Source of the DNA: Macrostomum lignano
Lineage: Eukaryota
Assembly: GCA_002269645.1 (NCBI GenBank)
Contig: NIVC01001695.1
Span: 31,246 to 95,245 of the forward strand
Direction of reading: 5' to 3'
Length of the DNA: 64,000 nucleotides
In this document: piece after piece, positions 5,682-23,771 of the stretch
Numbering within the stretch: the stretch's first letter is position 1
How the letters are laid out: each line of letters opens with the position of its first letter
Made by a program: the position numbers and the translations under genes
The notes under the pieces: model-generated
What the model was told of the DNA's origin: nothing
Databases searched by the model: none
Seen by the model: the letters and a program-made list of their open reading frames with translations, nothing else

Positions 5682-6011
5682 AGTAGTAGGTATTTGTACG
5701 CTTCTAGCCGTAGACAAACTATTTAAAACAGCATTTTTTAGGCTTAGAGGGGGGACACGGGGAAAAAAAACACATTTAACACCCATCCAACACCCCCAAC
5801 ACTCCCAATAATCAAAAACACTATTAACACATCCAATCAAATCCCCGTGTCCCCCCTCTAAGCCTTAAAATGCTGTTTTAAATAGTTTGTCTACGGCTAG
5901 AAGCGTACAAATACCTACAAATACACACAAACACACACAAACACACACAAACACTCTATAACCCGTCGCACGCGCCGCAGGCGCGAAGGGTCTTTTTCTG
6001 TTACTAAAAAT
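5682..6011 (+). repeat. Left terminal inverted repeat with internal ~77-bp inverted repeat (5686-5763 / 5842-5918)
   Basis: Reverse complement of 23439-23771 with a few mismatches; the internal arms are visible by eye. Confidence 0.95.
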
Positions 6012-6324
6012 GAACCGAGTTTACAACTTTTCAGTAAGCGATACTTTTGAGACCGTTGCTAAAAATGCAGAGATAATAAAACAGCACATATTGAATGGAA
6101 TAATTGATGAAGTTTATTTAAAATACGACGACAAGCACGAACTAAAACTTTATTCTTTAGAGTTAGATGGTTTGTATGATTTAGAACAAGAGGGTGAGTT
6201 AATATTTCAACTTGGAGATTATTTAAATTCCGAGGATTGGGAGGTTAGGTCAACAGATTCCGAATCAACAAATAGTTCTTATGAAACTAGCGATTCAGAT
6301 AATCAAAGTGAAATTTTTATGTAA
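6010..6324 (+). CDS. Polinton acidic hypothetical protein, 104 aa
   Basis: ATG in AAAAATG context at the inner TIR edge; acidic Ser-rich C-terminus. Confidence 0.6.
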   Translation: MNRVYNFSVSDTFETVAKNAEIIKQHILNGIIDEVYLKYDDKHELKLYSLELDGLYDLEQEGELIFQLGDYLNSEDWEVRSTDSESTNSSYETSDSDNQSEIFM

Positions 6325-6467
6325 AAAATGGAACAATATTCAATGCGCTTGATTCAATAAAAAAATTAATAAAGGATAAAATAGGAGAATTAGATTATAT
6401 ATGGGATAATGGGGAGCAAACTCTTCTTCTAGCACAATGTTTAAATTGTGAAAAAATAAACTAGAAA

Positions 6468-6875
6468 ATGATCACCGATTATTCCAACGGGTTTGTAAAC
6501 GATTGCACCAACGGTTCAATACCAACGGGAGCATCTTTTTTATCTGATAAAGCCAAAGATAATAAAGTAAAATATGATAAGCATCCAAATGAAAAAAGCA
6601 TTGGTACAAATACTATAATTGCTATTATTATACTAATCTTACTTAGTTGGATTATTTTTCCCGCTTTATTTTTATCTAAAAAATTGAATATCACGGGAAT
6701 ACCATATAATGAAAAAAATATAACATCCGCAATATTATCCATAGTTATATCAAGCACATTATTATTATTAATTCCACTAATTTTATTTTTTAGTATAATA
6801 TCAGCCGTGCTTTATGCTAAATGTTGTGAACGAAAACAAGAACTCCCCGACTCATTAGAGGCATTTAAAGTATAA
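6468..6875 (+). CDS. Polinton two-TM membrane protein, 135 aa
   Basis: Two long hydrophobic helices (IIAIIILILLSWIIFPALFL; AILSIVISSTLLLLIPLILFFSIISAVLY); AAAATG start. Confidence 0.65.
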   Translation: MITDYSNGFVNDCTNGSIPTGASFLSDKAKDNKVKYDKHPNEKSIGTNTIIAIIILILLSWIIFPALFLSKKLNITGIPYNEKNITSAILSIVISSTLLLLIPLILFFSIISAVLYAKCCERKQELPDSLEAFKV

Positions 6876-6877
6876 AA

Positions 6878-8487
6878 TTAAACTAACATTAATTGGCTTT
6901 CATAAAACGAACCCAATATTTCTTCACCGTCTTTATCAGCAATGATATAGGTTGTAGGATTTGTATTTAAAACTTTACTGACAGTAAATTTTTCACTTAT
7001 TTTCCAATATCCTTTTCTTCCCTTTTCAAACTTATCTTTCCATTTATAGATATAAACAGAATCACCAACTTTAAAAGGTTTAGTTTTCTTTTTTTCGAAT
7101 TCTCCAAAAGTAACTTTAACTTTTTCAGGACTGTTATAAGCTTGTTGTGGAGTCATATTTATAGCCGAATGATATGAATTATCTATCACTACGTCTGGTA
7201 ATATTTTTACCCACTTTTGGTTACCATTAAGACTAAATTGAAACCACAATTTCTTACCTAAAGTTCGATTAAATCTTTCTATTAAAGCGTTTTTGCTTTC
7301 GCCATAAATAGAATAAATCTTATTAATATACTCCCCATTAGCGACTCCGTCCAGTCCTTTTTCCTTTCTTGTTCTTTTTCAAAATGATATAATTTATACA
7401 TATGTGGATTGTAAAATTCCTTTCCTTCATCAACACATAAACGTTCACTTTTTTCTCCAAGACTTCTAAAAGCAGAAGCAACCTCCTCTCCTTTTTTGGA
7501 TTTCAAAGGAACAGCCCACGCATATCGAGTAAAACCATCTAATATGGTTAAAATATATTTATATCCCTGATCGGACGGCATAGCCATTAAATCAGCATAC
7601 CAAATTTCATTCTTTTTAAAGTTCATGATCTTTCTGTAAAATTTCGGTTTTCGGTATTCTTTGTGAAGAATCTTTGCCTCATCAGAACTTAACCCACCAC
7701 CACTTAATAACAAACACTCAACACAATTATTTCCATGTTGGTTGTAATTAATTCCCAAACCAAATTTAACTTTAGACTGCAAAATCTTTTTAACCATCCA
7801 CCGAGTTAATCTTTGGCTTACCGACAATCCTTGCAGATTATCTAATCCTTCAATCATTTTTCTATCGGCTTCATGCTTTAATCTTAATGCTTCCTCAGGA
7901 GAGTTCTTATCAGCATCTCTGTATGCTAAGTCATGATAATATGCTAACCAATCAATACCGTTAATGGGAATTGAATCTGCTTTTGGAGTGTCATCAGGAT
8001 TTAATCTCAAATCCAAGCGAGTCCCGGGTAGTTTACCCTCAATCTTTCGATAGAGGCTGGAGCACACCTTAAGCGGCTAAATTACCGCCCATCTCCGTCT
8101 GCTCTCTGAACCTTCTCCATATCGGCCACCGGACGGACTTAGGAGCTTGGCTGCGCATTGCCACCTTGTCTTCAAGCTTATTACCTTTGGGAAGAGGAGT
8201 TACCTCTGTTCCTTCAAAAGATTTCTCAATTGAAGTGGTACTTGAAGCTGTATGACGGGTTTCACGCAATTTGAAGATGTCGCCACTAATAGTGACTAGC
8301 AAGGACATTGACTTCCTCACTCAGGCCACGGATAACCTGCAAAGTTCATTGATGGAAGGTGTAGTTCCCCAGTATATTTTCCAGTAGTAAATATTGGCGG
8401 TAAGCTTGTTAATCCTTTTTGAACATCCAACAATCCACCTTCAAACACAACATGTATGGAATTAATATCGTTTGTTTGAATCACCAT
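6878..8487 (-). CDS. int: PLA2-domain / retroviral-type (rve) integrase fusion. Exon 1 8487-8335, group I intron 8334-8029, exon 2 8028-6878 with one frameshift near 7350-7380
   Basis: Spliced product reads MVIQTND...GELHLPSMNFAG|PGTRLDLRL...PINGIDWLAYYHDLAY (PLA2 Ca-loop GPG and HD dyad). DDE motifs WYADL, LCVDEGKEF and, after the frameshift, GESKNALIERFNRTL. SH3-like C-terminus FKVGDSVYI. Confidence 0.9.
8029..8334 (-). ncRNA. ORF-less group I intron, IC1-like, 306 nt
   Basis: P1 CAGGU/GCCUG with U.G at the 5' splice site. P2 AGUGAGGA/UCCUUGCU. P3 CAUCUUC/GGAGAUG. P4 UGCGUG/UGCGCA. P5abc with A-rich bulge GGUAAUAAGCU and GAAA L5b. P6a receptor CCUAAG/UAUGG. P7 GAGCA/UGCUC. P8 GGCGGU/GCCGCU. 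P9 CCUC-UAUC-GAAA-GAUU-GAGG. P9.0 AG/CU. Removal restores NFAG-PGT in frame. Confidence 0.93.
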
Positions 8488-9037
8488 TTTTAATGGCCTT
8501 AAAAATACATGATATCACTAATTGTTTTGCAAATTCTTCAATAGTTGGTTGTTTAACCCTTTTTGAAATATTATCTGCAGCAGCTAAGTACCTTTTATTT
8601 CTCCACCACTCAGAACATCTAACTTGGTTTTCATCTATATAATCATATGAAGAAGCGGGAATAAAAGGATCAACATGTAACACACCAGTATAATCTTTTG
8701 TGATGTAATAATGTTTTGTGAAATTTAACCAATCAATAAAGAATTCTTTTGTGCAATCAAGATAGAAAATATAATCATAATCATTAAAAATAGTTAATTG
8801 ATTTTTTACTCTATTTCTAATTAATACAATAAGTTTGTAGTTTTCATCATTTTGGTATTTGTTTCTACGATATTTATTCCATTTATCTTTATTGTTTTTC
8901 ATCCAAAAACTACTACTATTATTATGACATAATCGACAATCATTTCTAAAATTTTTTGAATCATTTCTCCAAATAAAAAATTCTTTAGTCATTGGTTTTT
9001 CTTCATGGCACTTATTACAAATCTTTTTAGTTATCAT
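8462..9037 (-). CDS. Free-standing HNH-type (homing-endonuclease-like) protein with N-terminal CxxC...CxxC zinc finger, possibly inactivated
   Basis: KICNKCHEEK...NDCRLCH zinc finger, then LHVDPFIPASSYDY...C...WRN...LAAADNISK matching the HIDHIIP...N...DN..K pattern of large-DNA-virus HNH proteins; the expected His after Asp is Pro. Confidence 0.75.
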   Translation of the reverse strand: MITKKICNKCHEEKPMTKEFFIWRNDSKNFRNDCRLCHNNSSSFWMKNNKDKWNKYRRNKYQNDENYKLIVLIRNRVKNQLTIFNDYDYIFYLDCTKEFFIDWLNFTKHYYITKDYTGVLHVDPFIPASSYDYIDENQVRCSEWWRNKRYLAAADNISKRVKQPTIEEFAKQLVISCIFKAIKNGDSNKRY

Positions 9038-9060
9038 TTTATAAAAAATAAATTTAACAA

Positions 9061-9744
9061 TTAAAGTCCAGTATGTCCGGCAGCTTTGGCAGCGGCTAAA
9101 ACAAGTTTTCGAGGAGTTTTTAAACCATCCCCAACAGCCCTTTTGTTTCTTATAGATTGATCGATATGCTTATACAAACTGGTGTTTTTAATAGCTCTAT
9201 CACCCAAATCAATATTATAAAATTTTTTAGCACTTATTAATTCATTCCGAGTATATAAATCAGGATTAAACTTTACTTTAGGCCTTGTAACAATATTAAA
9301 TGCTCCACCCAACTCTTTATATAATTCATCCCGACTTTTTTCAACCCTAGTACCAATTCGAAAATTGTCATTACCTAAATCTATCGCAGCAATACTTTGT
9401 GGCGCAGCTCTTGGAAATTGCTCAATATCACCACGACGTTCCGCAGCTCTAATCTCTGCAACTCTAAATTGTGCTTGAGCCACATTATAAGTAGGCGGTT
9501 CATCCTCCACAATTTCATCCTCTTTTGGCTCCGTATTCTTTGCAATTTTTTCAAGAAGTTCTTTATCAGTTTTTGTTAATTAACTAATTTTCCCCGTAAT
9601 AGGATTAATAAAAGGAGCAGCAAATTTTTCACCGGCTAGCTGTACTCCCAGCTTTCTTTTTTGTAAATCTCTAACAAAATCAGAATATCTTTGCTTCTCT
9701 TTATAAATCGCCAACTCCCCATCAACGTCCATAAACTGACTCAT
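9061..9744 (-). pseudogene. Polinton conserved/core protein (~227 aa) with premature TAA at 9580-9582
   Basis: AAAAAATG start at 9744, in frame with ORF 9061-9510 across one stop; C-terminal GDG-L site and LVLAAAKAAGHTGL tail. Confidence 0.6.
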
Positions 9745-9778
9745 TTTTTAACATAAAAAACTTTTTTAACCTATAAAA

Positions 9779-11259
9779 ATGGCCGAGACAAAAACCATTT
9801 GGAGTGATAAATTTCATTTCAAAAAACAACGACAGTATATTAATGAGGTCAGATCAAGAGATTTAAATTATACCCAACCAACAAGCGATAATTCAAATAA
9901 CTTTACAACGGGAACAGTAACTTTTGACATTGGTGCAACCACCAGCATATTGGATATGAAACATGCGTTTTTCCGAGTTAGGTGGTTGTATACCAGAAAT
10001 GATGGAACAGCCCTTACAGCTCCTGATATAGATGACAGAGCCGGCATTATTATAGAAAATGATTGGTTTTATAAATGTTTTTCCCAAGCACAACTAACCA
10101 TTAACGGAGCCGAGGTTGAGACGGTTACAAACCCAGCAGAGATTAATGGAGTTTTGAAACATTTAAATTATACATATTTATCAAAACAGGTTGGTGATAA
10201 CGTTGGATGGATGCCCGATAAGGGAGATGGTGGAGCAATAAATTTTCCCAATGTAGCACCAGCAGCCGGCGCAGATACCGCAGCTCTTATTAATTATTTA
10301 AATAATAATATAGTTCCGGTTGTAACAACCCTAACCAACACCAAAAATATGAACACCGGTTTTATAGACCGTCAGAATAAATTCCCAGTCGCGGTTTTAA
10401 CCACCGCAACCGCTTATGAGCAAGACTTTCAATCTTTCCACTATTTGGGTTCTTCTCACCAAATCGGGTATGGAAGGGATTAAAATTTGGGGTACGGTTG
10501 CAAATATCTAGTGGATATCTGCCCCGGATACTTTTTGGAAATTCAACCTCAACCGATATTGCAGTTCGAATTGTTTCGATTCAATTAGTTGTGCCAACTA
10601 TCGAGTTAACTGCTCCGCTTTTAAAACATATTGATGATCAGATAATGTTAGACCAGGATATATTTTATTTGAATCGCCGCCACTTTATGCGAACCATTAA
10701 TAACAATCAGGATTCATTCCAGTGGCAAATCTTACAAACAAAACGTCGGGTGAGGTATATTTTTATTTGGTTTAAAATATCAAACAGAAATAGCAAAAGA
10801 GGAAACTGTGATTTATATTGGCTTCAATCTGATGCCGTAGCAGCACAGGCAGCCACCGCAAGTGATAACGCGCTTTCGGCGATTAACGCATTTAATCTCC
10901 AGAATATCCGACTGCAGGTTGATGATCAATATTATCCTGTTAAAAGCCCGCTTAATCTAAATGTTGGAAATAATGATGTTAATGATTTTATAAAATATTA
11001 TCAGGATTACGTCAAAAACGAAGCCTACGCCATTCCTCAATATACACCCACAGAGTTTCTAAACATTCACCCCGTGGTTGTTTTTGATCTAACAGCACAG
11101 AAAGAAAATGTAGCCAATGTTGGTTTGAATTATATGTTGGAGATTAATAAAACCGGAAATCAGGCAGTAGACGCTCACGCATTGTTTCTAGAGGAATATA
11201 TGGCAATTGCTAAACCCGACGGCACCGTTGTTCAGGACGTCCCCATAGGAAAAAATTAG
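9779..11259 (+). CDS. Major capsid protein (double jelly-roll, hexon-like), one frameshift near 10430
   Basis: Two abutting ORFs join via IFPLFGFFSPNRVWKGLKFGVRLQI. Size ~490 aa, beta-rich, FSQAQLTINGAEVE and IRLQVDDQYYP segments, located directly upstream of ATPase and penton. Confidence 0.85.
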
Positions 11260-11278
11260 TTAAATTATTTCCTTAAAA

Positions 11279-12046
11279 ATGGTAAAGCCAAAACATAATA
11301 AAATATTTCCCAACGACCCTTTTCTTTTTTTGGTTGTTGGAGGATCAGGTAAAGGAAAAACACACTTTGTTTATGACTTATTAACAACTTATAAAATGTT
11401 AGATTATAATAATTTAATAATATATACAAACAAACCTAGAATAAAATATTATGAATTTCTTAAACATGGATTAAAAAACAAATTAAAAAAAGATATCTTG
11501 TTTAGAATGTTAAGAGCATATGAGCAATATGAGGACGACGATGAACCAAAATTCAAACTTTGTGACATTGAGGGTTTATGTAGAGAAACTGCGCAGCATC
11601 CAGAAAACGTCGACAACAACTCCCCAACGATCCAAATATCAAACAGATTAACCTATGATCAAATCCCAAAAGATGATAAAACACTAATTGTATTTGATGA
11701 TTGTATTAATGATGGTGATCAAAAGTTGCAAAAAGAAATTTTTGTTAGCGGTAGAGGAGATGGAATTGGAGCTTTTTATCTCACTCAATCCTTTAGAGAA
11801 TTAGATTCAATTATAAAAAAGAATGCAAGTTGTTGTGTAATGTTTGATCTAGATAACTACGATTTACAAAGTATACATGCGAGATTTAACCCAGGTTTAG
11901 ATCCAAAACCATTCAAAAGCATGTGTAAAAAAATTTGGGATGACAACCAATACAAACACATATATATCAACCCTAGGTTAGAAAGGAGAAATAGAATCTT
12001 ACAAAATTTGATACACGAGGAGGAGGAAGAGGAGGAAAAGGAATAA
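11279..12046 (+). CDS. A32/FtsK-like DNA packaging ATPase
   Basis: Walker A GGSGKGKT, Walker B LIVFDD, GRG motif, FYLTQSF. Confidence 0.93.
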   Translation: MVKPKHNKIFPNDPFLFLVVGGSGKGKTHFVYDLLTTYKMLDYNNLIIYTNKPRIKYYEFLKHGLKNKLKKDILFRMLRAYEQYEDDDEPKFKLCDIEGLCRETAQHPENVDNNSPTIQISNRLTYDQIPKDDKTLIVFDDCINDGDQKLQKEIFVSGRGDGIGAFYLTQSFRELDSIIKKNASCCVMFDLDNYDLQSIHARFNPGLDPKPFKSMCKKIWDDNQYKHIYINPRLERRNRILQNLIHEEEEEEEKE

Positions 12047-12093
12047 TCGCCCCGAAGGGTCGCGTACCTTTGGTACGATTCCCACCTATAAAA

Positions 12094-12879
12094 ATGGCAG
12101 TGAACCTCGATACAATAAAACAAGTGGTTGATAGAACCAACTCAAAATTTAGTACAACCCTACAATTTGTAATGACTAGCAGCGAGCAAAGGATTCAATT
12201 ACGTAACCCACTAACTCTTGATCAGACATTAAGTTATGAAATTGGTTTAATAATGTATTCAGTTTTTAACATGCCTCAATTGATTAATGCAACAAACAAT
12301 CAATTTAGATATTCTAAAGATTCAGGAGCAAATTGGACAACTATTACTATAACACCCGGCGCATATAACTATACTGATTTGAATACCGTAATGCAAGCTG
12401 AGTTAACAGATAATGGTGATTGGGTAGCAGACGCAATTGTTATAGGAGTTGATTTACCATCAGGCAGATTCACACTTACATTAGCGGCCGGTTATCAGGT
12501 TGATTTTACAATTGCCAATTCACTTAGAACCATATTAGGATTTAATTCCCGAATCGTTACCGCATCAACCACGGGCGATACCGTGGGAAATATTGAAGGC
12601 GGAGTCAACACAATTAATATTGCAACCGATATTTCAAATGGTGGTTATATAACAGATGATAACGGATTTTTGGTTCAGCGCGGAATTATATATTCAATTC
12701 CATTTCTAGCGGTTCCAATTGGAGATAAAATGATAGTTGCACCTCAAACCCCAATATATTACCCATTAAATCAATATAATTTACAATCAATTTTTATAAG
12801 AGTTGTAGATGATTCGGATCGACTAATAAGTTTTGGTGGACAAGCAATAACAATAATTTTAAGAATAAAACAGGTTTAG
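12094..12879 (+). CDS. Minor capsid protein (penton-like single jelly-roll)
   Basis: TATAAAAATG start; ITITPGAYNYTDLN, INIATDIS and IFIRVVDDSDRLISFGGQAITIILRI resemble Polinton minor-capsid patterns. Confidence 0.85.
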   Translation: MAVNLDTIKQVVDRTNSKFSTTLQFVMTSSEQRIQLRNPLTLDQTLSYEIGLIMYSVFNMPQLINATNNQFRYSKDSGANWTTITITPGAYNYTDLNTVMQAELTDNGDWVADAIVIGVDLPSGRFTLTLAAGYQVDFTIANSLRTILGFNSRIVTASTTGDTVGNIEGGVNTINIATDISNGGYITDDNGFLVQRGIIYSIPFLAVPIGDKMIVAPQTPIYYPLNQYNLQSIFIRVVDDSDRLISFGGQAITIILRIKQV

Positions 12880-12889
12880 AATCTTAAAA

Positions 12890-13498
12890 ATGGGTAATAA
12901 TAACGCTTTAAAAAAACAAATGGTAAAAGTTCAAAAAGCAAAAGATAATTATGAAATCGAATTAACAAAATTGAAACATCTACAAGCGGAAAAAATCAGG
13001 CGGGAAATATTACAACCCACAGATAAGAAACTAACAAAAACAAAGAGTTTTCAGAAGCATAAAATGACTATGAGCTGGAATGAGTTCAAACAAAGATATG
13101 GAACGGATGCAACAAGTAATATTGAATTAACAAATTGGGCGAGACAATTAAAAATAAAACCGTTCAGATGTGTTATGCGCGATGAGATAAAAGACTTACA
13201 ACAATATGGATCTTTCATTGTCAATATTGAAACGACAAAATAAAATGGTGTACATTGGTCAGCAGTTTATTCAAAACCCAAACTCGTTTATTTTTTTGAT
13301 TCATATGCCCTTCCTCCATTGCAGGAAATAAAAGACAAATTTAACCACACTAAAAATCGATTATGTGGAGATTATCACGAACAATTTCAAACCTTTGATA
13401 AAAGTTATTGTGGGCAGGCGGCGTTGTATTTTTTATATAGAATCGAACAAAGTTCGCGTACCCCAGAGGATTTTAAAAACATATTGGATTCATTTTAA
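12890..13498 (+). pseudogene. Adenain-like cysteine protease, premature TAA at 13241-13243 (alternative start 13064)
   Basis: In-frame continuation past the stop gives NGVHWSAVY, YFFDSYALPP and QFQTFDKSYCGQAALYFL (His/Asp/Gln/Cys motifs). Confidence 0.88.
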
Positions 13499-13521
13499 TA
13501 TGGTAAAAATAGACTCTGAAA

Positions 13522-15511
13522 ATGTTATTTAGTGGAACACCCTCATGGAATGGAACTTCAAGTACTGGTGGTGGCGGATCAAGTGGAGGAATCAGTGTTA
13601 CATTTGGAGACAACCGATATATAAATGAAGATGAAGGATATAAAAAAACAGAAATAGATAATAAATTAAATTTAAAACGGAATGTTGCAGATTCCATACC
13701 AAAACTCAAGTCGATAATTCATTAAATTTAAAACGCAATACCGCCGATTCCTGTAGCAAGACGGATATTGATAATTCATTAAATTTAAAACGGAATATAT
13801 TAGATTCTTATAGTCAAGCCGAAGTTGATTCCGAACTTAATTTGAAACGGAATGTGGCAGATTCATATACAAAAACGGAGGTTGATAACTCATTAAACTT
13901 GAAAAGAGACATAACCGATTCTTATTCCCGAACAGATTCTGATTCGCGTTATGTTCAAACCACCGCAACCGGCACCTTAGATATGAGTAACAATCGAATT
14001 ATAAATGTTTCAATTACAACAAACAACTCGGTAGTCGATAAGAACTATGTTGATAATCAAATTGGTACTCGTACTGGTAATATAAATATGAATAATTTTA
14101 AATTAACAAATTTGTTATTTGGAACAGAGGACACGGATTCAGTCAATCTCGAGCAAGTAAATGCACGAGCAAATATAACCGATGATGATATTTTTAACAC
14201 GCCTCTTACATCAAATACTTCAAATCCCGATGTTATTCTTACAGCTTCTGAAAATAACAATGAAGCTTTTCGAGTTGGTGACGGAAGTCTTGCAACACAA
14301 TGGTCACCAAATACCGGTACCACAACCAATATGGAAATTAATTTGAGTTTTTAGGCTATAATCGAAGAATAAATGAATTAAGAGTTACGGGCAGCCCAAC
14401 AATTGATATCCCATCGGGATGGTCGGTGCGTGCAAAAAATGTTGCTACAGACGCGTGGACTGTATTACGAACATCATCCTCACCAATTCAAGCAACTTCA
14501 TTAGCATTAACTAATTTAACAGTTAATTTTTGGAAATATTATAGCGTTTTATTCCCAACCGGTGGGACAGTTACACAACCTATTGAAGTTCGTCTAATTC
14601 AATTATTTGAACACCGAGTTGAAGTTCAAGATCTCAATTGGCCAAATCAAGTACTTTCTGCCACTCCGCGTGCATATGTAGATCAATTAGCAACCCCAAC
14701 TTCAAATGGTAGAATGTCTGCTGGTGATAAAAATAAATTAGATGGAATTCCTGCAATTGATGCCGCATTATTCGAGCCAGTAATTTGCAATTGGACTGGA
14801 TATCAAAATCCAACAACCGCCGGAGATATATATCCAGTGGGAACTTTAATTGGTGACGCCACATATGTTGATTATCAAAACGGAGCTAGAATAACTCGCG
14901 AAACCGCTGGAGTAAGTGGCGCTTTACAATTTAATTTTACACATTTTCAAAACATTGCTGCGTCCTTCTTTTTCCGAGTTGCTAATAGTGGTGGGGATGG
15001 TGCGGATGCAGTTTGGTTTTATGCATATTGTCATGAACGACCTACTAGTGAATTTGGTAGTAGTTTAACAACCGACGCTGGTCTGATAGTGTTTGCTAGT
15101 GAATGGACAGATCGGTTTGGTGTGGTTTGGAGTAATAAAAAAGCAGATGGAACCACAGTTCGTAATGATGTTCAAAATGACGCCGACCAAACAGTAACCT
15201 ACGCTAATATTGATAATGACGATTGGCATCTTTTTGAAATTAATATTATTAATCAAAGAGTTTGGTATCAATTAAGGTCATACAATTTTTCAACTAAAGC
15301 ATATACACTAATTGGGAAAAATGTTTTTACATATGATAGTGGAACTTGGGGAACTTTAGATAAATCTGGAACTCTTATGGGTTTTGGTGCACGAACCTGA
15401 GGAGCGGATGCTGCACATTTTATTCGAGGCGCTGCTGTTTGTGGTAGCACATCTGCGGGATATAATTTTGCTGCCAGTGCATATCTGGAAGAGCCGCCGG
15501 TAGCAATATAA
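13522..15511 (+). pseudogene. Putative virion fibre / receptor-binding protein (~660 aa): 19-aa repeats, discoidin-like and L-lectin-like domains; two frameshifts and one TGA
   Basis: Five YxKTEVDNxLNLKRNxxDS repeats (~13640-13950), NINMNNFKLTNL stalk motif, F5/8C-like AFRVGDGSLATQWSP...RINELRV, GRMSAGDKNKLDGI, and lectin-like GGDGADAVWF and GFGART(G)GA..HFI. Confidence 0.65.
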
Positions 15512-15527
15512 AATATTGTTATATAAA

Positions 15528-15857
15528 ATGGCTTTTAGTAGAACTCCATCAATGCGACAATGCAATAATATTGTTATTCCGATTCCCAAACAAGAATCAA
15601 ATATAAAAACTTTTAAATCTCATACCAAAATTTTATTTAGCGGAGTGAATGTTCAAGACAATAAGAAACTTCAGGAATTAATTAAATTATTAAAAACCCA
15701 TATTATATTACAGGAGTTTTGGAAGGTTGGATTTAAATGGGAGAAAAAAGAAAGAATAACTCCAATCCAATACTTATTGAGCGCTGGACAGATTCCTAAG
15801 GAGCGTGGGGAATTCATTTTGGTGTTATTAAAAATAGACGAAAATTTCGGTGTCTGA
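15528..15857 (+). CDS. Polinton hypothetical protein
   Basis: TATAAAATG start, ~109 aa, overlaps the next gene. Confidence 0.55.
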   Translation: MAFSRTPSMRQCNNIVIPIPKQESNIKTFKSHTKILFSGVNVQDNKKLQELIKLLKTHIILQEFWKVGFKWEKKERITPIQYLLSAGQIPKERGEFILVLLKIDENFGV

Positions 15858-16494
15858 AGCAGACAGAAAAGAGCGCGACCTATTTAACCAACGTAAAGGG
15901 CGCATGTTAAGTAATGTCGATCGAATTAATTATGATTATGATTTATATACCAAAAAAGTAAGAAGGCTTTCAAACCATATCAGGAATATGGATTTTTTCA
16001 ATATTGGTTTTGGAAGTTTATCGATGTTGTGTGTGATCGTTTTAGGTATTTTACAATCCATTCCAACTCTTAATTTATCTCAATTATTTTTGGGTATTTC
16101 AATTGGTTCAATATCAGGTTTTGAATTAATAAGAAACTTATCAATACTTTTGGCAATTAAATTATATCTTAAAAAAAGAAAGGATAAATATAAATCACTA
16201 AGAGATGTTGCTAAACAATATAAAAATCAGTTATATTTATATGTGCAAAAAATATTAGATGATGGTGAGATTACAATACATGAGTTAACAACCGCGGTTG
16301 AGTTATATGATAAGTATTTAAAAGATAGAAATAGAATTTTAGATATTGAAGCTTTTACCGATATGGAATTGAAAGAATTGCGTTTGGACGCCCCCAAACC
16401 TCCGCCTATAGAAACTATAGAATACAAGTCCGAAGTTATGGCTGATGGGGTACAAAGCCCGCGATCAGGTAGCACTATAGAACTTCAGGTCTGA
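15850..16494 (+). CDS. Polinton two-TM protein with helical C-terminal domain
   Basis: Hydrophobic hairpin FFNIGFGSLSMLCVIVLGIL / LFLGISIGSISGFELIRNLSILLAI followed by ILDDGEITIHEL. Confidence 0.7.
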   Translation: MSEADRKERDLFNQRKGRMLSNVDRINYDYDLYTKKVRRLSNHIRNMDFFNIGFGSLSMLCVIVLGILQSIPTLNLSQLFLGISIGSISGFELIRNLSILLAIKLYLKKRKDKYKSLRDVAKQYKNQLYLYVQKILDDGEITIHELTTAVELYDKYLKDRNRILDIEAFTDMELKELRLDAPKPPPIETIEYKSEVMADGVQSPRSGSTIELQV

Positions 16495-16550
16495 CTTAGT
16501 CAGCGAACCTTGGTTCGGTGGTGTAATTTATTAAAAATATATTCTAAAAA

Positions 16551-16835
16551 ATGGATCAAGGAATAATACATAAAGTTAAAGTTAAAGATAAAATCCTTTT
16601 TAAAATGTATTCTGTCCAAGATATAAATATATATACTAAAACTTCTAAAAAATATGGGTGGCCGTGTTATATTTTTGGAACTTATTTAATTATTAATTAT
16701 ATAAAAAACCTACTTGCTCTTCCAAAAAGAAGAATGCCGGAGTATATCCAAGACGAATTCGATGCGCGTAAAGCTACATCTGATATTAAAAGTGTGGAAA
16801 TAATTAATTTAGAGAGTTTAAGAAATTCTATGTAG
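16551..16835 (+). CDS. Polinton hypothetical protein, 94 aa
   Basis: AAAAAATG start, ORF track. Confidence 0.5.
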   Translation: MDQGIIHKVKVKDKILFKMYSVQDINIYTKTSKKYGWPCYIFGTYLIINYIKNLLALPKRRMPEYIQDEFDARKATSDIKSVEIINLESLRNSM

Positions 16836-17080
16836 ACCCATCTGTAGCTTTTTTAATGCATAAGTTATATATTCTTCCCACAATGGTAATTGCCTTTTGA
16901 TTCGTGGTTCGAATTTTTTATCAATACATAAAAATTCCAATGACTTTTTCAATAACATTTCGCTTGGGATGTTGCCCAGTCTTATATGTTTTGTGTTCTC
17001 TCTCATAAGAAAATTGAAATAATATTCAACCAGAGTTAAAATCCTCTCGGCGTCTTTCGAACTTAATCCTTTTCCTTTAT

Positions 17081-17356
17081 TTAAATGAAAAAAGTTATTA
17101 TATAAATAAACAGTATTTCCGGGGATGGTATTAATTTGTGTGCCGTCTGGCTTTGAAGGGATGGATGTGAAATGTCACATGATAAATTTCTTATAATTGT
17201 GTTTTTGAAATAGTAATATGAGTTTTCAATCTTTTTTGTTTTTTCAAATTGATATATCTTAGCGCATGAATAACACATGTGGTATATTTCTCCATTTGCT
17301 GTTTGACCTCTCTGCATAGTAACATTACATTTTTTACATTCATATCTGTCTTTCAT
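17081..17356 (-). CDS. Small zinc-ribbon protein
   Basis: YECKKC...MCYSC CxxC pairs; AAAAAATG start. Confidence 0.55.
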   Translation of the reverse strand: MKDRYECKKCNVTMQRGQTANGEIYHMCYSCAKIYQFEKTKKIENSYYYFKNTIIRNLSCDISHPSLQSQTAHKLIPSPEILFIYIITFFI

Positions 17357-17382
17357 TTTTTTGTTATTTTTTTAGACTAAAA

Positions 17383-17712
17383 ATGGAAAAAGAAAATCGG
17401 TTCAAAACTGATTCTAATGCAATTAATTTTCTAACCACCAATTCTCTGGAACCAAAGGAGTATGATATAATATGTTTGCGACAGGTTAAATTTATTGGAA
17501 TTCAATCGATATTTTTACAATTAAACGGGGGAGTCGTTCTGTGCTTAAGTGGTGATGATGCTAAAAATTTTCCAACAATTGTTATAAATAAACCTAAAAC
17601 TTTTATTATGAAATACTCACGAATGGATGGTTTGCAATTTAAAGAAAGACAAGCAAAAAACAAAAAGGTTGATAGGACTGTAAAATTAGCCGCTGTTTGG
17701 GAGGAAGACTAA
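17383..17712 (+). CDS. Polinton hypothetical protein, 109 aa
   Basis: CTAAAAATG start, ORF track. Confidence 0.5.
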   Translation: MEKENRFKTDSNAINFLTTNSLEPKEYDIICLRQVKFIGIQSIFLQLNGGVVLCLSGDDAKNFPTIVINKPKTFIMKYSRMDGLQFKERQAKNKKVDRTVKLAAVWEED

Positions 17713-17727
17713 ATTTTTTATAAGAAA

Positions 17728-18084
17728 ATGGCGAGCGTAAAAAACCTTCTGTGCACTCACAATAAAGAAATGAATGATATTAATAAAAAATTAAATATAA
17801 TTAACGAACAGAAATATAGTGATTATGGCGACGATATGTTTCCGATTCGATATGAATTAGAAAAAAGAAAGCGTTTTATTATAAAAGCAATTGCTTATGC
17901 TGAAACTATTATTGAACAAGAGATCGACCGTCTTGTTAGACGAATAAAAATACTTCGAAAAAAAGTAAAAGAGTGTTTAAGTTACCCTGCCGATTGTGAA
18001 GATAATTGGTGTTCAATAAAATATGAAATGGAAATGGATATTCTACTTAAGGAATTACATGCTTTAGTTTTTTGCCGTTATTAG
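17728..18084 (+). CDS. Polinton helical hypothetical protein, 118 aa
   Basis: AAAATG start; converges on the pPolB 3' end. Confidence 0.5.
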   Translation: MASVKNLLCTHNKEMNDINKKLNIINEQKYSDYGDDMFPIRYELEKRKRFIIKAIAYAETIIEQEIDRLVRRIKILRKKVKECLSYPADCEDNWCSIKYEMEMDILLKELHALVFCRY

Positions 18085-21000
18085 TTTTTCCGTTAATCTC
18101 TTCCAGTTATCCAAGACTTGTTCCTTTTTTAATTTTTTAAATTCTTTTGGAAATGTTGCATAATAATTTTCTATGTCTTTTTCATATTCTAGATATGTAT
18201 TATATTCATATTCACATTCGATCGGAAACCGCGTTCCGATGGAAAGATCGTCCTCGCAATCACAATCGTAATGGTGATTATTTATTGACTCTTTGTATTC
18301 TTTATATCTGCTTATTAAATACTCATCTTGTTTTTTATCTTTTATCATGTTTTTAATTTCTTCTTTTAAACCATATGGATATGTTTTAATTTTATTATCT
18401 AAATACCTTTTATCATCAAATGGGCTTAATGTTTTTTTTATCAGTCTCAATAACAAACATCTGATGATTATCTGAATTTAATCGATATTGTGGAGCATGA
18501 TATTTTTCAATTGTACGAGTATTAAGGGATTATTAATCATTAATCTAATAATGCGTTTTTATAATCAACAAAAGTTATCTTTTTAACTGCTGCCCTTGAT
18601 ACTCCTTTTTTTTACCTCTCCCTCCTGTCCTAAAACCTTAAATGCATAACATTTTGATCTTATTGCTATAAACTCGGTTATGATTTTGCTATTTAATTCA
18701 TCTTTCATTTTAAGTACAACTTTCTTATTTTTATCAGATTTTAGAGGATGTTTATCCGGATAATCAGAGGTGTCCAATGTATCCTTAATTGTTTCCATAT
18801 CTTTATAGACGTCCTCAGTTTCAACCTTAAATACCAAACTGTCGGTGTCTGCATATATTGGATAGTTATCTGGCCAAGTTTTATTTATAACATCATAATA
18901 GTATTCATACATTACTAGCTTTGCATAATCTAAAACAACCATTCCAATAAAGATTGGTTTAAGAAATTTTGTTTTTTATTGCGCATATGTATTCCCATAA
19001 ATTCATCATCAAATTTTATAAAGTCTTTAAAGTTAGGTTTGGTCAAATATTTCTTTGCTTTTTCAATATCCTTTTCTAAATGGAATTGGGTTCTATCTCT
19101 AATATTTTCAACCGTTTTTCCATAAAATGCATTATTCATTAATTTCCAATAATCTTTCTCAAAAGTTGTTTTTGCCATCTGTCTCTGATTTGAATTAAAA
19201 TCAATATATTTAGCTAACCAATCTTCTTCTATAAATGATATTGTTCGATGTACTTTGGTTACTTTTAGTCCTTGCTTTTCATAAAATTGTAGAAGCTTAT
19301 AATGCACTACATAGTTTTTCTTATCAAATAAATTTAGAATTAGCTTCTTTGTTGCTAGATGTTTTGAATTATCTGCTTTAAGATAATCTTTTTGTGTTTG
19401 TGATAAATCATCTTCATTAACTGAACAATGCTCTGGAGCTAGAGGATATTTATATGTTGCTGCTTTTGCTTGCCGAGTATATTTTAAATCTACTTTCACT
19501 ATGCATCCCCTTCCTTTGGGAATGTTTTTATAATAATTGGGATTGTATTCCCACCGGAAATCGGTAATTGGTAATTTTTGTTTCATACAGCCTCCATATA
19601 AATTGTTTGCATCTAGATATAATACATATGATGATTTTTCTTTTTTATTATAATTAGGTAGATACTTATTATTTACTTTAGTATATCTATCTCCTAGTAC
19701 CCCTGAGAATCCCCCGCGAATTCCACGCTCAATCATTAACAACATATCATGATCAGTTAGTAAATCAATTTTTACATCTGTATGTTTTAACCCGCATGCC
19801 CATGTTAATCCGGGTGCACTGAAACAATAGGCTGGATCAATTTTAAACTTCTCGTATGTATGATTCCTAAAGTTTTCAAACGCATCAGCTAACAGGAGAA
19901 CATCTGCTTTAAGATATAGGTTATGATAATCTTTAAAAGTTTTACAATCAAAGTATTTCCATACTTTTTGTGCATGTTCATAATCCGATTCGGATATGTT
20001 AGATTGTGATAATATTGAATAAAACTTTTCGATTGGGGGTAGTTGAGTATCATTAAATACCTTTTCAGATGTTTCATATTCATATGGATAAACGCCCTTG
20101 CGAGTTAATAGTATTAGTTCTTCCTCGGATAGTTTTTCCTTTTTAAATTTATTTAATAGTATTGGAAAGTTTTTCTTTATTGTTTCTAAGTCCCATGGTT
20201 TTGGAACTAATGATGAAACAACATTCGCTAGGGAGGTTGATAAGAATCTCAAGGAGTCTAGAAAAACCAGATGGGAATATTTTTTACCATATGTTATTGA
20301 TATGTAATTTTCTGATGTTTTTGGTAAAATATTTACTTCATATTCATCCTTACCTAAGTGTAGTAATTCTCGAACAAGGAAATGACAATCATAGCCAGAA
20401 CCATTATGAAAAAATACTGGTATTTCCTTATATCCTTTTCCTTCTTTTGTGTGACATGATCTACATGCTGCCCCGCGATAAATTCCTGTTAGATAACAAT
20501 GCTCTTTTATCTTATTCTTATCACTTAATTCCATTTGACATAGAAAACAATTTGTTGCATTCTTATGGTTATATTTTTCTTTTTCTGTCATAATAATATA
20601 TTTTGATAATTTACAATATTGATTTTGAATATATTTTAAATACATTAACCAATGATTCTACCATATGTTTCGCCGAGTCCATACCATGATAAGTAATTAT
20701 CTTTGATTTAAAAATATGATCTGCTGCAGAATGTACATATATAGAATAACTATTTGGATACTGTTGTGCCAATTTTTTTGTGCAGTCGCCCTGAAGGGTC
20801 GCGGACTCCGTCCGGTCACCCAATGGAACATTGGTTGCTTCAAAATCAGCATATATTACAATTGATTTTTTAATTGACATATAATGTTGTTGGAACTTTA
20901 AGATTTTATCTTCACCATATGGCATTAAAACCTTAGTAAATTTATGATCTAAACAAAATATTTGATGCTTTTTAAGAGCTGTTTCATCCCTTTTAAATGT

Positions 21001-22034
21001 GAAACAGTTTCTACATAATTGCATTCTATTTCCATTTTCTCTTAAAAAAGAGCTAATATCTTTTATGTATATATAATGTGTTTCATTTCCGCGCTGCATA
21101 TACAAAAGGTCGATTTGATCTGGTGCTGTTATATCAGTTGCTGGCTTTACTAAATAACATCTTTTTTTATACCAATCTTTATCGCCAATTGGAATTTCTT
21201 CTGGCTCTTCAATTGTAAATACATTAATATTTAATCCATTCATTTTTTTCAATCTTATATATATCATCAATGGCTACTGGGTATGATATGTTTTTCATTA
21301 TTATTTCATCCTCATATTTTCTATAATTATATATTTCATTAACATGGGATTTTACTTGTTCATGATATTTATGAATTAATAAACACCATAATAAACACTT
21401 ATTATCTTTATTGTCTGGATTTATAATCATTGGTGATTTAAAGCCGAGGTTCATATAAGATCGTTCTCTAAGAATTTCTATGGGTACAATCTTTACTGTG
21501 GCTGAATTACAGGATACAAATATAAACCCTGATCCATTTTCTGTCATCTTATCTATCCATTCATCAAACTCTGCTTCTATTTGATCAAATTGATTGTCGT
21601 AATTTCTCATTGATAGGAGTCTTATATGATTCTTGTGAAAAGTTATTTATTACTTCAATTTCTGAATTTGCATTAATCATATTTGGTTTTTTAAATTCTG
21701 TTTCAATTTCTATTTTATACTTAATTGGCTGTCGTTTGTTATTTGATCTTTTAGTATATCTATCTAGGATGGTCTTTAATTTTGGTTTCATTTGTTTAAA
21801 ATATTCTTTATAATCAGTATTTATTTCAATATCTATATTTATTACTTCAGCTCCATTTTGTCTTTGTGGTTGAGGTTTATCAATATCATTTAATTGTCTT
21901 TCTAAACGCATCTCATTTTCTGCTCTGACTCTAGCTTCTATTTCCGCCCTATTGGCCATTCGTTGTGCTTCTATTTGAGCTATTAATTGTGCTCTAAGTT
22001 CTGGGTTGTCGATTTGGGCTAAAATAGCTTCCAT
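18064..22034 (-). pseudogene. polB: Protein-primed family B DNA polymerase (pPolB), ~1300 aa, split by about six frameshifts
   Basis: Exo I VIYADFE, Exo II VFFHNGSGYDCHF, Exo III YLKADVLLLAD, Pol A YLDANNLYG, Pol B KLMNNAFYGK, Pol C YADTDSL, C-terminal LSPFDDKRY, internal C/H zinc motif CFLC...HC...ACRSCH. Confidence 0.95.
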
Positions 22035-22064
22035 TTTATAGAATAAAATTTATACAATGTTTAC

Positions 22065-23018
22065 CTACTCGAGTTCCGCTTTTGGTAAAATTAATTCACT
22101 GCCTGAGACATTTGCATTTAAGATGATGCCTGATCCAGCTTTTGGTCTCATTTCAAGATATAAACCGCTTCCGTCGTGCTTTTCAATTATGTTAAAATCT
22201 TTTCCTAATTTGTTAAAAATCTTCTGAACAGCTGGCCTAAAATTGGCTCCGATATTGTCAAAAAATCCTTTAGCTTTTTCACCCGTTTTTTTTAAGGTTT
22301 GACCAAACTCATGTAATTTATCTGCTACAACTCCGCTTCCGTGGGTTTTTCCTTGTAAGATTAAACCCTTTCCAGCTGCTAACCTAGCTTCTGCATTTCT
22401 TTTTTGTTCTGCTGTTGCCGAGCTACTATTAATGGTATCGATCAGTTTTTGTTTAAATTGAGCATCCTGTGTTATTTGCTGTCTTTGGAATTCAGCCTCT
22501 CGTTTGGCTTTTTCATCCGCAGCTTTTTTGTCATTTACTGCTTTTGCAATTCCAGCCGCTCCACCTGCTACTCCACCAGCTGCTCCGATTCCCGCAAAAA
22601 TTATTGGGAGCAAAGTTGCAAGTGGAAGTATACCCCCCTGTTTTAATTTTAATTCTCCTAGCTGTTTTCGATTATCGTGAATTCTTTTGGCTGCTAAACC
22701 GGTTGCTCCAGCTGCTCCGAGTCCTAAAAGAATTGGTAGAATGGGCAATAATCCACCATCCTTTTTAGTGTGAGTCTCCAATAAAAATTTCACATCAGAT
22801 TCTGTTAACCTATAATTTTTATCATTATTCTTAAATGAAACTGGCCTTCCTTCTTGTGCATATTTTGCAGCAAGTTTAAAAGTATCAAAATTATAATCCA
22901 ATTTTTTACCTAATCGATCTAATCTTTTTAACATTGTGTGACTGTGTTTACTATCATCCAAGTTTAAGGTGTCTACTATTTCTCCTATAAAATATAACCG
23001 ATCGTTGTCCGAGTCCAT
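22065..23018 (-). CDS. Virion core/maturation protein with two adenovirus pX-like GG-(L/I)LP hydrophobic repeats
   Basis: KDGG-LLPILPILLGLGAAG and KQGG-ILPLATLLPIIFAGIGAAGG resemble adenovirus pX GG-FLPALIPIIAAAIG; several GSG-hydrophobic sites. Confidence 0.7.
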   Translation of the reverse strand: MDSDNDRLYFIGEIVDTLNLDDSKHSHTMLKRLDRLGKKLDYNFDTFKLAAKYAQEGRPVSFKNNDKNYRLTESDVKFLLETHTKKDGGLLPILPILLGLGAAGATGLAAKRIHDNRKQLGELKLKQGGILPLATLLPIIFAGIGAAGGVAGGAAGIAKAVNDKKAADEKAKREAEFQRQQITQDAQFKQKLIDTINSSSATAEQKRNAEARLAAGKGLILQGKTHGSGVVADKLHEFGQTLKKTGEKAKGFFDNIGANFRPAVQKIFNKLGKDFNIIEKHDGSGLYLEMRPKAGSGIILNANVSGSELILPKAELE

Positions 23019-23028
23019 TTTTATATTA

Positions 23029-23430
23029 CTAAAACTTCTTTAATCCTTTTCCGCCTTTAATGCTAGTTAATACTTTATTAAAATCTTGGATATCTTTATT
23101 ACTTATTGGGTTGCTTTTAGTGGCTGTTTCAGTAGGTTGTGCGGCTTCTTGTGCTAATTTTAAATCTTTTATTGCTTTTATTTGTGAGAGGGTGTCGTTA
23201 AATTCTCTCAATTTTTTAAGTTCCTCAGCTGCCCTAGCCGCTTCTATTCCACCCTTTACCGCATTGGTTATAGAGCCTGCTGTCGAGCCTGCTTGTCCTA
23301 TCAAGCCCATATTATCTTTAACCAAATTTGCTGCTGATCCTATCATATCAAAAAGACCCTCACCTCGGTATTCAACTGGGTCTCCTACTTGCAATTCATT
23401 CAGATTGGATAGTTGGGTAACATGTGTCAT
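23029..23430 (-). CDS. Small virion protein with amphipathic helix after GEG-LF
   Basis: YRGEG-LFDMIGSAANLVKDNMGLIGQAGS; C-terminal GGKG-LKKF; starts next to the right TIR. Confidence 0.6.
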   Translation of the reverse strand: MTHVTQLSNLNELQVGDPVEYRGEGLFDMIGSAANLVKDNMGLIGQAGSTAGSITNAVKGGIEAARAAEELKKLREFNDTLSQIKAIKDLKLAQEAAQPTETATKSNPISNKDIQDFNKVLTSIKGGKGLKKF

Positions 23431-23438
23431 TTTTGTCT

Positions 23439-23771
23439 ATTTTTAGTAACAGAAAAAGACCTTCGCGCCTGCGGCGCGTGCGACGGGTTATAGAGTGTTT
23501 GTGTGTGTTTGTGCGTGTTTGTGTTTTTGTAGGTATTTGTACGCTTCTAGCCGTAGACAAACTATTTAAAACAGCATTTTAAGGCTTAGAGGGGGGACAC
23601 GGGGATTTGATTGGATGTGTTAATAATGTTTTTGATTATTGGGAGTGTTGGGGGTGTTGGATGGGTGCTAAATGTGTTTTTTTGATTTCCCCCCCGTGTC
23701 CCCCCTCTAAGCCTTAAAATGCTGTTTTAAATAGTTTGTCTACGGCTAGAAGCGTACAAATACCTACTACT
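23439..23771 (-). repeat. Right terminal inverted repeat with internal inverted repeat (23529-23604 / 23692-23767)
   Basis: Reverse complement of 5682-6011. Confidence 0.95.

Follow-up and report, generated by a model that had tools for sequence, protein, structure and literature searches.

A restriction-like nuclease as the probable partner of a group I intron in a Macrostomum lignano Polinton, with an HNH-family gene as a possible competitor for the same slot

Does the free-standing HNH-family nuclease gene that lies beside a group I intron in a Polinton of Macrostomum lignano spread together with that intron, or does the intron have another partner? An earlier note on the window (the whole 64,000-nt stretch of DNA analysed here) proposed that two elements at this locus, an intron lacking an ORF and a free-standing nuclease, spread as a pair, with the HNH-like gene as the nuclease. 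The coordinates behind that proposal all hold: the HNH-like ORF runs from 9037 to 8462, overlaps the ATG (8487) of the intron-containing gene and ends 127 nt from the last exon-1 base. The general idea is also probably right, in that collaborative homing probably operates here, but the evidence favours as partner an unrelated nuclease, R, that fills the same slot in other copies of the element. The features discussed below are as follows, in window coordinates.

5682..23771, no strand assigned: host Polinton, 18,090 nt, delimited by terminal inverted repeats (TIRs) and gene content
9061..9744, minus strand: upstream gene, boundary of the nuclease slot, with an internal stop in the window copy
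8462..9037, minus strand: free-standing HNH-family gene in the variable slot, with a CxxC/CxxC N-terminal domain, long helices and a beta-beta-alpha-Me core
8335..8487, minus strand: exon 1 of the PLA2(-integrase) gene, its ATG lying within the 3' end of the HNH ORF
8344..8355, minus strand: exon-1 segment -21 to -10 from the splice site, candidate HNH target region judging by its association with the slot gene
8029..8334, minus strand: group I intron (RF00028) without a nuclease ORF, ending in A and splitting Gly-Pro codons
8069..8308, minus strand: 79-codon sense frame across the ribozyme core, resembling the C-terminal tails that intron-encoded Eco47II-like R proteins gain by read-through
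7282..8028, minus strand: exon 2, PLA2-like domain in frame into an rve integrase, 248 codons and then broken in the window copy

The window Polinton has TIRs of 337 nt (95% identity) and encodes an integrase, a double-jelly-roll capsid protein, an A32 ATPase, a pX-like protein and a presumed pPolB with an Endo VII domain; the pPolB was assigned by layout, and a Pfam PolB match is absent. PLA2 and pX-like genes are described as typical of adintoviruses in the available text of PMC8502044. The Endonuclease VII domain of the presumed pPolB (18930-20645) scores above its Pfam cut-off and resembles HNH insertions known in nematode and oomycete Polintons, and HNH domains are on record for nematode Polinton polymerases in the parts of that literature that were accessible. 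This copy is decayed throughout: integrase, capsid, polymerase and the upstream gene all have broken frames. In lineage A, to which the window copy belongs, and likewise in a sister lineage, B, PLA2 and the rve integrase form a single in-frame fusion (window 7282-8028); the intron would therefore gate integrase expression unless an internal start is used. Frame-preserving, CG-rich hairpin inserts of ~30 nt recur in the PLA2 N-terminus, an intron loop and the upstream gene (L009, L016, L027, L042, L057, and at about 8455-8480 in the window), and look like miniature palindromic mobile elements.

The intron (8334-8029, 306 nt) scored 61.4 bits with Rfam RF00028 (gathering score 50, E 2.5e-15), and was not picked up by a wider Rfam scan of 19.5 kb. 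Its limits are fixed because three natural intronless copies exist, and spliceosomal, AT-AC and group II readings were dropped on the strength of these copies and the Rfam match. P7 is paired in 112 of 115 lineage-A introns and is compensated between lineages A and B, and a U precedes the 5' splice site, as expected of group I. Group I introns usually end in G, with a terminal-A precedent in Coxiella. Among the matches listed, the terminal base of the lineage-A introns is A in 83 of 115, including the window copy, and G in 27 (5 unscored), and the lineage-B intron ends in G; a terminal A goes with CCC as the first exon codon (75/83) and a terminal G with CCG (25/27). The description of the intron as having no ORF of its own holds for a nuclease ORF, but not for the 79-codon sense frame (8308-8069). 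Exon 2 has a dN/dS of 0.05, which suggests that the intron is spliced. No exon-exon joint across it was present in four contig sequencing runs, which is uninformative either way, a pattern taken from loose read ends gave no matches, and single-strand folding of the intron was likewise uninformative (z -1.0).

At the PLA2 site of this intron, at least 14 lineage-A copies (L193-L198, L203-L209, L211; e.g., L203:1140-1470) instead carry a second, distinct type of group I intron. It scores 34.2 bits against RF00028 and has peripheral stems in common with the first type; by their motifs the introns look IC1-like and IE-like, the core of the second presumably being IE-like. Matches to the intron core were also found at two giant-virus loci (L113, L114), at the 3' end of a capsid gene and within RPB1, and nuclease-like ORFs adjoin both.

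The 191-aa product of the HNH ORF belongs to a family resembling giant-virus and phage HNH proteins. The family is large (3745 matches at E<=0.001), and across 109 aligned members N147 is invariant and D123, H124, P127, N156 and K159 are at least 90% conserved, giving a conserved D-H...N...N motif. This motif and the viral matches point to an HNH-family protein: Foldseek returned mimivirus L246 (E 5e-10) and an 'intron encoded endonuclease' of Bodo saltans virus (E 8e-9), and many of the other viral matches bear the HNH name. Solved HNH domains match weakly (Z 4.1-5.7), namely the N-terminal part of Hpy99I (Z 5.7, rmsd 2.2, 42 aligned), the Cas9 HNH domain (Z 4.1, rmsd 4.3, 76 aligned) and, with Cas9 HNH in the range Z 4.1-4.3, BrxU; strong structural matches were confined to predicted viral proteins, and none in the PDB reached E<=0.001 in Foldseek. 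Pfam HNH was detected in 4 of the 109 family members and not in the window protein. A word-indexed homolog search with the window HNH sequence gave no matches, a viral-contig scan with the HNH alignment no useful relatives, and a metagenome scan a single 1.2-kb contig, on which the HNH relative adjoins the end of a gene that looks polymerase-like from its motifs.

The expected catalytic His of the window copy does read Pro, at codon 124 (8668-8666) directly after Asp 123; this is the catalytic column of the family. The suggestion that the substitution reflects decay of the nuclease after fixation did not fare as well. Among the matches listed, the HNH frame is open in 55 of 77 scoreable lineage-A copies (7 more were unscoreable), and 54 of these 55 keep D-H, Pro being found in the window copy alone; two other HNH copies have different substitutions at the His column (L067, L211). 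Neighbouring frames are open at matching rates (R, 20/26; a shorter exon-2 stretch, 93/118; again among the matches listed), and the pooled dN/dS of HNH is 0.47. Because the Pro is private to one decayed copy, and given this dN/dS and these open-frame rates, family-wide decay is not supported; the Pro is decay of one inserted copy or an assembly error.

To ask whether HNH and the intron travel together, presence and absence were scored in at least 118 lineage-A loci, which are not independent (107 complete loci represent 75 haplotypes). Among the matches listed, these 118 loci comprise 81 with HNH and the intron, 30 with R and the intron, 4 other or truncated, and 3 with HNH and no intron. Protein searches added 20 further places among the matches listed: 6 with R and 8 with HNH, each beside the second intron type, 1 in which HNH adjoins a type-1 intron that is truncated, 2 fragments of lineage B and 3 that could not be scored; no intronless copy was among the 20. 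The comparison that the earlier note had advised thus cut both ways, as intronless alleles are rare but all three in lineage A (2 haplotypes, among the matches listed) carry HNH, two of them (L031, L091) with an open frame that retains D-H and both Asn. The share of intronless copies did not differ significantly between slot genes (HNH 3/93, R 0/36; p 0.56). In one copy (L037:2372-2836), the slot holds a partial paralog of the upstream gene and an HNH remnant.

These counts bear directly on the possibility that HNH recognises a site across the exon-exon junction, so that the intron protects its carrier and both home together, the few intronless HNH copies surviving through resistant alleles. 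In keeping with it, 90 of 93 scoreable HNH copies among the matches listed have the intron, and the structural relative in Bodo saltans virus is annotated as intron encoded. Against this, every intronless lineage-A copy has HNH, 36 intron-bearing copies have an unrelated nuclease in the slot, HNH was never found inside the intron, where R was, and the metagenomic relative adjoins the polymerase-like gene end instead. The window copy is itself a mosaic, its intron 98.7% identical to those of R-slot copies and its HNH slot nearest to that of the intronless copies (89.6%). In addition, 32 haplotype pairs have introns within 1% of each other and different slot genes, and HNH adjoins either of the two intron types. 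Because of this mosaic copy, the mismatched pairs and the two intron types, HNH and the intron are not supported as one co-inherited unit. Dependence of an intact HNH gene on the intron for self-protection was also not borne out, subject to the possible effect of resistant alleles. We therefore regard a pairing of HNH with the intron as quite improbable, and favour R as the partner.

R, an unrelated Eco47II/EcoO109I-like nuclease, fills the slot in 36 other lineage-A copies, and in all 36 that could be scored among the matches listed it stands free beside an intron. It reaches 21.2 bits (E 2.4e-4) against Pfam Eco47II (PF09553), under the cut-off of 25.9, and its top structural match is EcoO109I (Z 8.0, rmsd 4.2, 168 aligned), so that profile and fold, both at threshold, are consistent with an Eco47II-like PD-(D/E)XK nuclease. 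A genome-wide Rfam search for the intron exposed lineage B, a sister Polinton lineage whose PLA2 is about 57% identical to that of lineage A. There a homologous intron interrupts the same G|PG site and holds R inside a loop, which in the window intron is only 5 nt long. In 56 of 57 lineage-B matches examined, we found 28 with the intron and internal R, 25 intronless and without R (checked over about 1.6 kb upstream), and 3 truncated or ORF-less; HNH was absent from all 56 of the fetched lineage-B stretches. One ORF-less lineage-B intron (L179) carries a long 21-nt tandem array in its P6 region and a truncated core.

Taking lineages A and B together, among the matches listed, R occurs only with an interrupted site (36/36 free-standing, 28/28 intronic) and in 0 of 28 intronless alleles. 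Six of nine metagenomic R homologs extend into a ribozyme-core peptide, and these are probably intron-encoded too. In the R tree the free-standing and intronic forms fall into separate clades; the tree is unrooted and gives no direction. Viral-contig scans with PLA2, R, the R motif and pPolB returned no useful relatives. From this distribution, we consider a partnership between R and the intron likely.

The site itself offers a reason why such a partnership might arise. Eco47II homologs cut GGNCC and EcoO109I cuts RGGNCCY, according to the accessible parts of PMC10305163 and PMC3089450, respectively. A Gly-Pro codon pair always contains GGNCC, so the G-P-G motif of PLA2 forces this word into the DNA, and the intron inserts within the Gly-Pro codons and splits it. 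Elsewhere in the window Polinton (18,090 nt) GGNCC does not occur, against 22.0 expected (0/200 local shuffles), the lowest of 256 spaced words; a codon-order shuffle gave 11.5 expected (0/1000). The flanking host DNA shows no depletion (109 observed, 89 expected). Lineage B also has none (13.4 expected). The 118 lineage-A loci (206.5 kb) contain eight GGNCC, three at the intronless junctions and five in two truncated or rearranged loci. Two counts sit less well with a GGNCC target: 22 of the 25 intronless lineage-B copies keep an intact GGNCC, and CCNGG is depleted as well in the window Polinton (8 vs 22). From the family specificity and the avoidance of GGNCC, the target of R is predicted to coincide with the intron insertion site.

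Avoidance of GGNCC could nevertheless have other origins. Lineage C, a third, large Polinton lineage (150 scored of 426 candidates) in which PLA2 is intronless (L115-L128), has 11 GGNCC against 27 expected, again the most depleted word, and no intron, R or other nuclease near PLA2 in any of 14 loci; for this reason, the depletion could be a general trait or the effect of another nuclease. Viral-contig scans yielded no outside Polinton control. The avoidance might thus stem from a host, symbiont or giant-virus nuclease or from mutational bias, R being a conventional long-site homing endonuclease of the intron. The depletion in lineage C agrees with such an outside cause, as does the richness of host DNA in GGNCC, which would make a short-site cutter costly; indeed, cutting at a 5-bp site ought to harm host DNA, and a Pfam scan of 26 ORFs of the window Polinton gave no methyltransferase match, which is a counterpoint to the prediction for R. 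On the other side, the depleted word is the specificity of the closest characterised relatives of R, it ranks first of 256 for depletion in three lineages, and the intron splits that very word. An outside cause combined with a long-site R therefore appears highly unlikely to us, and a GGNCC target remains our prediction for R.

If R is the partner of the intron, what does HNH do in the same slot? Association between sequence and the identity of the slot gene is strongest (r2 0.45) in exon 1, between positions -21 and -10 relative to the splice site, a stretch that is also the most diverse; r2 stays at or below 0.16 in the upstream gene and over the first 84 of the exon-1 nt examined, and at or below 0.27 in the intron and exon 2. 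The changes at the peak are non-synonymous, lie about 100 nt from the slot and fall in a conserved motif, P-G-Y, which lineages B and C share. Of 93 HNH copies, 7 have the ancestral-type PGYS allele, against 14 of the 36 R copies (Fisher p 5.5e-5, although the copies are not independent). Such a pattern matches intronless homing as described in the available text of PMC2988022, in which a free-standing homing gene is protected by target substitution, and HNH is read here as a gene of this kind on that account. Whether HNH targets exon 1 in its ancestral form, some 10-21 nt upstream of the intron, is, on this correlational basis, an evenly balanced matter in our judgement. The same data touch on the pairing of HNH with the intron considered above: association within 21 nt of the insertion site and the distinctive exon alleles of both intronless haplotypes agree with that pairing, but intron-bearing HNH copies still have altered exon alleles, which would be needless under intron protection.

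The pattern is not uniform. At least two copies (L031, L202) have an open HNH frame beside a PGYS-type allele, and alleles other than PGYS are present in 22 of 36 R copies as well as in lineage B, which lacks HNH. Divergence of HNH is more closely correlated with that of the upstream gene (Mantel r 0.52) than with that of exon 1 (0.30). HNH might have no target in this gene, being an accessory or formerly mobile nuclease swapped in by ordinary recombination beside a genuine R-intron partnership, with the allele association reflecting linkage and recent bursts of copies. All segments are intercorrelated (Mantel r 0.26-0.52), a single exon allele accounts for 65 copies, and a dN/dS of 0.47 is loose, as would be expected of such a bystander; linkage alone fits poorly with an association that skips the slot-adjacent bases and has its maximum some 100 nt from the slot, where non-synonymous changes alter a conserved motif. 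We think this account unlikely, and retain the reading of HNH as a homing gene with a target in exon 1.

Drawing on the observed distributions, folds, site depletion and allele association, we lean, with somewhat better than even confidence, towards a combined model in which R and the intron form a homing pair and HNH is a competing free-standing homing gene at exon 1, both targets, the nuclease activities and splicing being inferred. In this model, R would cut GGNCC, which the Polinton would have purged genome-wide, the intron splitting one site that lies beyond purging; R would cut intronless rivals, and repair would copy in the intron together with R, which sits inside the intron in lineage B and just upstream of it, free-standing, in lineage A. 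HNH would be a second free-standing homing gene competing for the same slot, probably cutting or nicking the ancestral form of exon 1 at a point about 10-21 nt upstream of the intron, protecting itself through exon substitutions rather than through the intron, and carrying the neighbouring intron, whichever its type, as a passenger in the manner of T4 MobE. Homing would take place between co-infecting or co-resident elements. The co-conversion that the earlier note had advised looking for between HNH and the intron is thus conceivable, as HNH-linked change peaks 10-21 nt from the insertion site and HNH homing could co-convert the intron. A broader reading is more tentative, and we hold it at rather less than even confidence: that an animal-type Polinton has captured a restriction-like enzyme of type II, with a target of 5 bp, and deploys it without a methylase both as a weapon and to drive homing, that immunity comes from genome-wide site loss and from a ribozyme intron hiding the essential copy, and that intronic and free-standing R, a rival HNH gene and a second intron segregate in one genome.

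If true, these Polintons co-infect, recombine and fight with nucleases, and collaborative or trans homing, experimentally shown only in phages according to the accessible literature, would extend to an integrating eukaryotic virus. An intron that gives immunity against a restriction-like enzyme with a short site would stand in for methylation in an unusual way, and because R occurs in both states at one site, the debated question of how homing genes pass between free-standing and intron-encoded forms becomes open to test. Collaborative homing in Polinton-like viruses has been raised as a hypothesis only, in the available text of PMC11296320 and 10.64898/2026.10.13.758929. A literature search, from which most subscription papers and supplements (e.g., the PLV intron tables of PMC12220804) were out of coverage, turned up no description, for Polintons, of an intron at the PLA2 site or of an Eco47II-like ORF within an intron.

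Several known systems resemble parts of this locus, as far as the accessible portions of the respective reports describe them. Group I introns and free-standing HNH genes are on record for Bodo saltans virus (PMC5871332) and protist Polinton-like viruses (PMC12220804), which likewise combine ORF-bearing and ORF-less group I introns in eukaryotic DNA viruses and for which nuclease-mediated competition was proposed; unlike the present case, these are protist viruses with HNH, GIY-YIG or unannotated intron ORFs, and the matched text of the two papers contained no PLA2 site, Eco47II-like ORF or partner analysis. R is comparable to the type II enzymes Eco47II and EcoO109I in its best structural match and predicted GGNCC core and differs from them in having no cognate methyltransferase among the 26 window ORFs, its protection appearing to come from site loss and the intron. 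The PD-(D/E)XK homing enzyme I-Ssp6803I has a 17-bp site in the available text of PMC3424549, against the predicted 5 bp for R. In ICP1-like phages (PMC10448857, as far as accessible), a PD-(D/E)XK gene takes the place of HNH at one locus, as here, and turnover of homing endonuclease genes (HEGs) was proposed as an origin of ORF-less introns beside free-standing HEGs; that is a phage system, and the accessible text contains no analysis of site avoidance.

For HNH, the closest parallel in the available descriptions is T4 MobE, a free-standing HNH gene upstream of an intron-bearing gene that acts in the 5' part of that gene rather than at the insertion site, and for which nuclease-plus, intron-minus recombinants occur. 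A cut at -21 to -10 would mean that the intron is often co-converted, as with MobE; in contrast to MobE, the candidate HNH site lies 10-21 nt from the intron, and the slot is common to HNH and an unrelated nuclease. The layout as a whole, in which a group I intron lacking a nuclease interrupts a conserved gene and a free-standing nuclease lies next to it, is that of F-CphI and the ORF-less psbA intron of cyanophage S-PM2 and of the T7-like phage case of Bonocora and Shub 2009, going by what was accessible of those reports. As in phage collaborative homing, the predicted target of R is the insertion site. Unlike those phage systems as described there, the virus here is eukaryotic and integrates, R as the likely partner has a type II restriction-like fold and a predicted target of 5 bp that is avoided genome-wide, and intron-encoded and free-standing forms of R coexist in one host genome.
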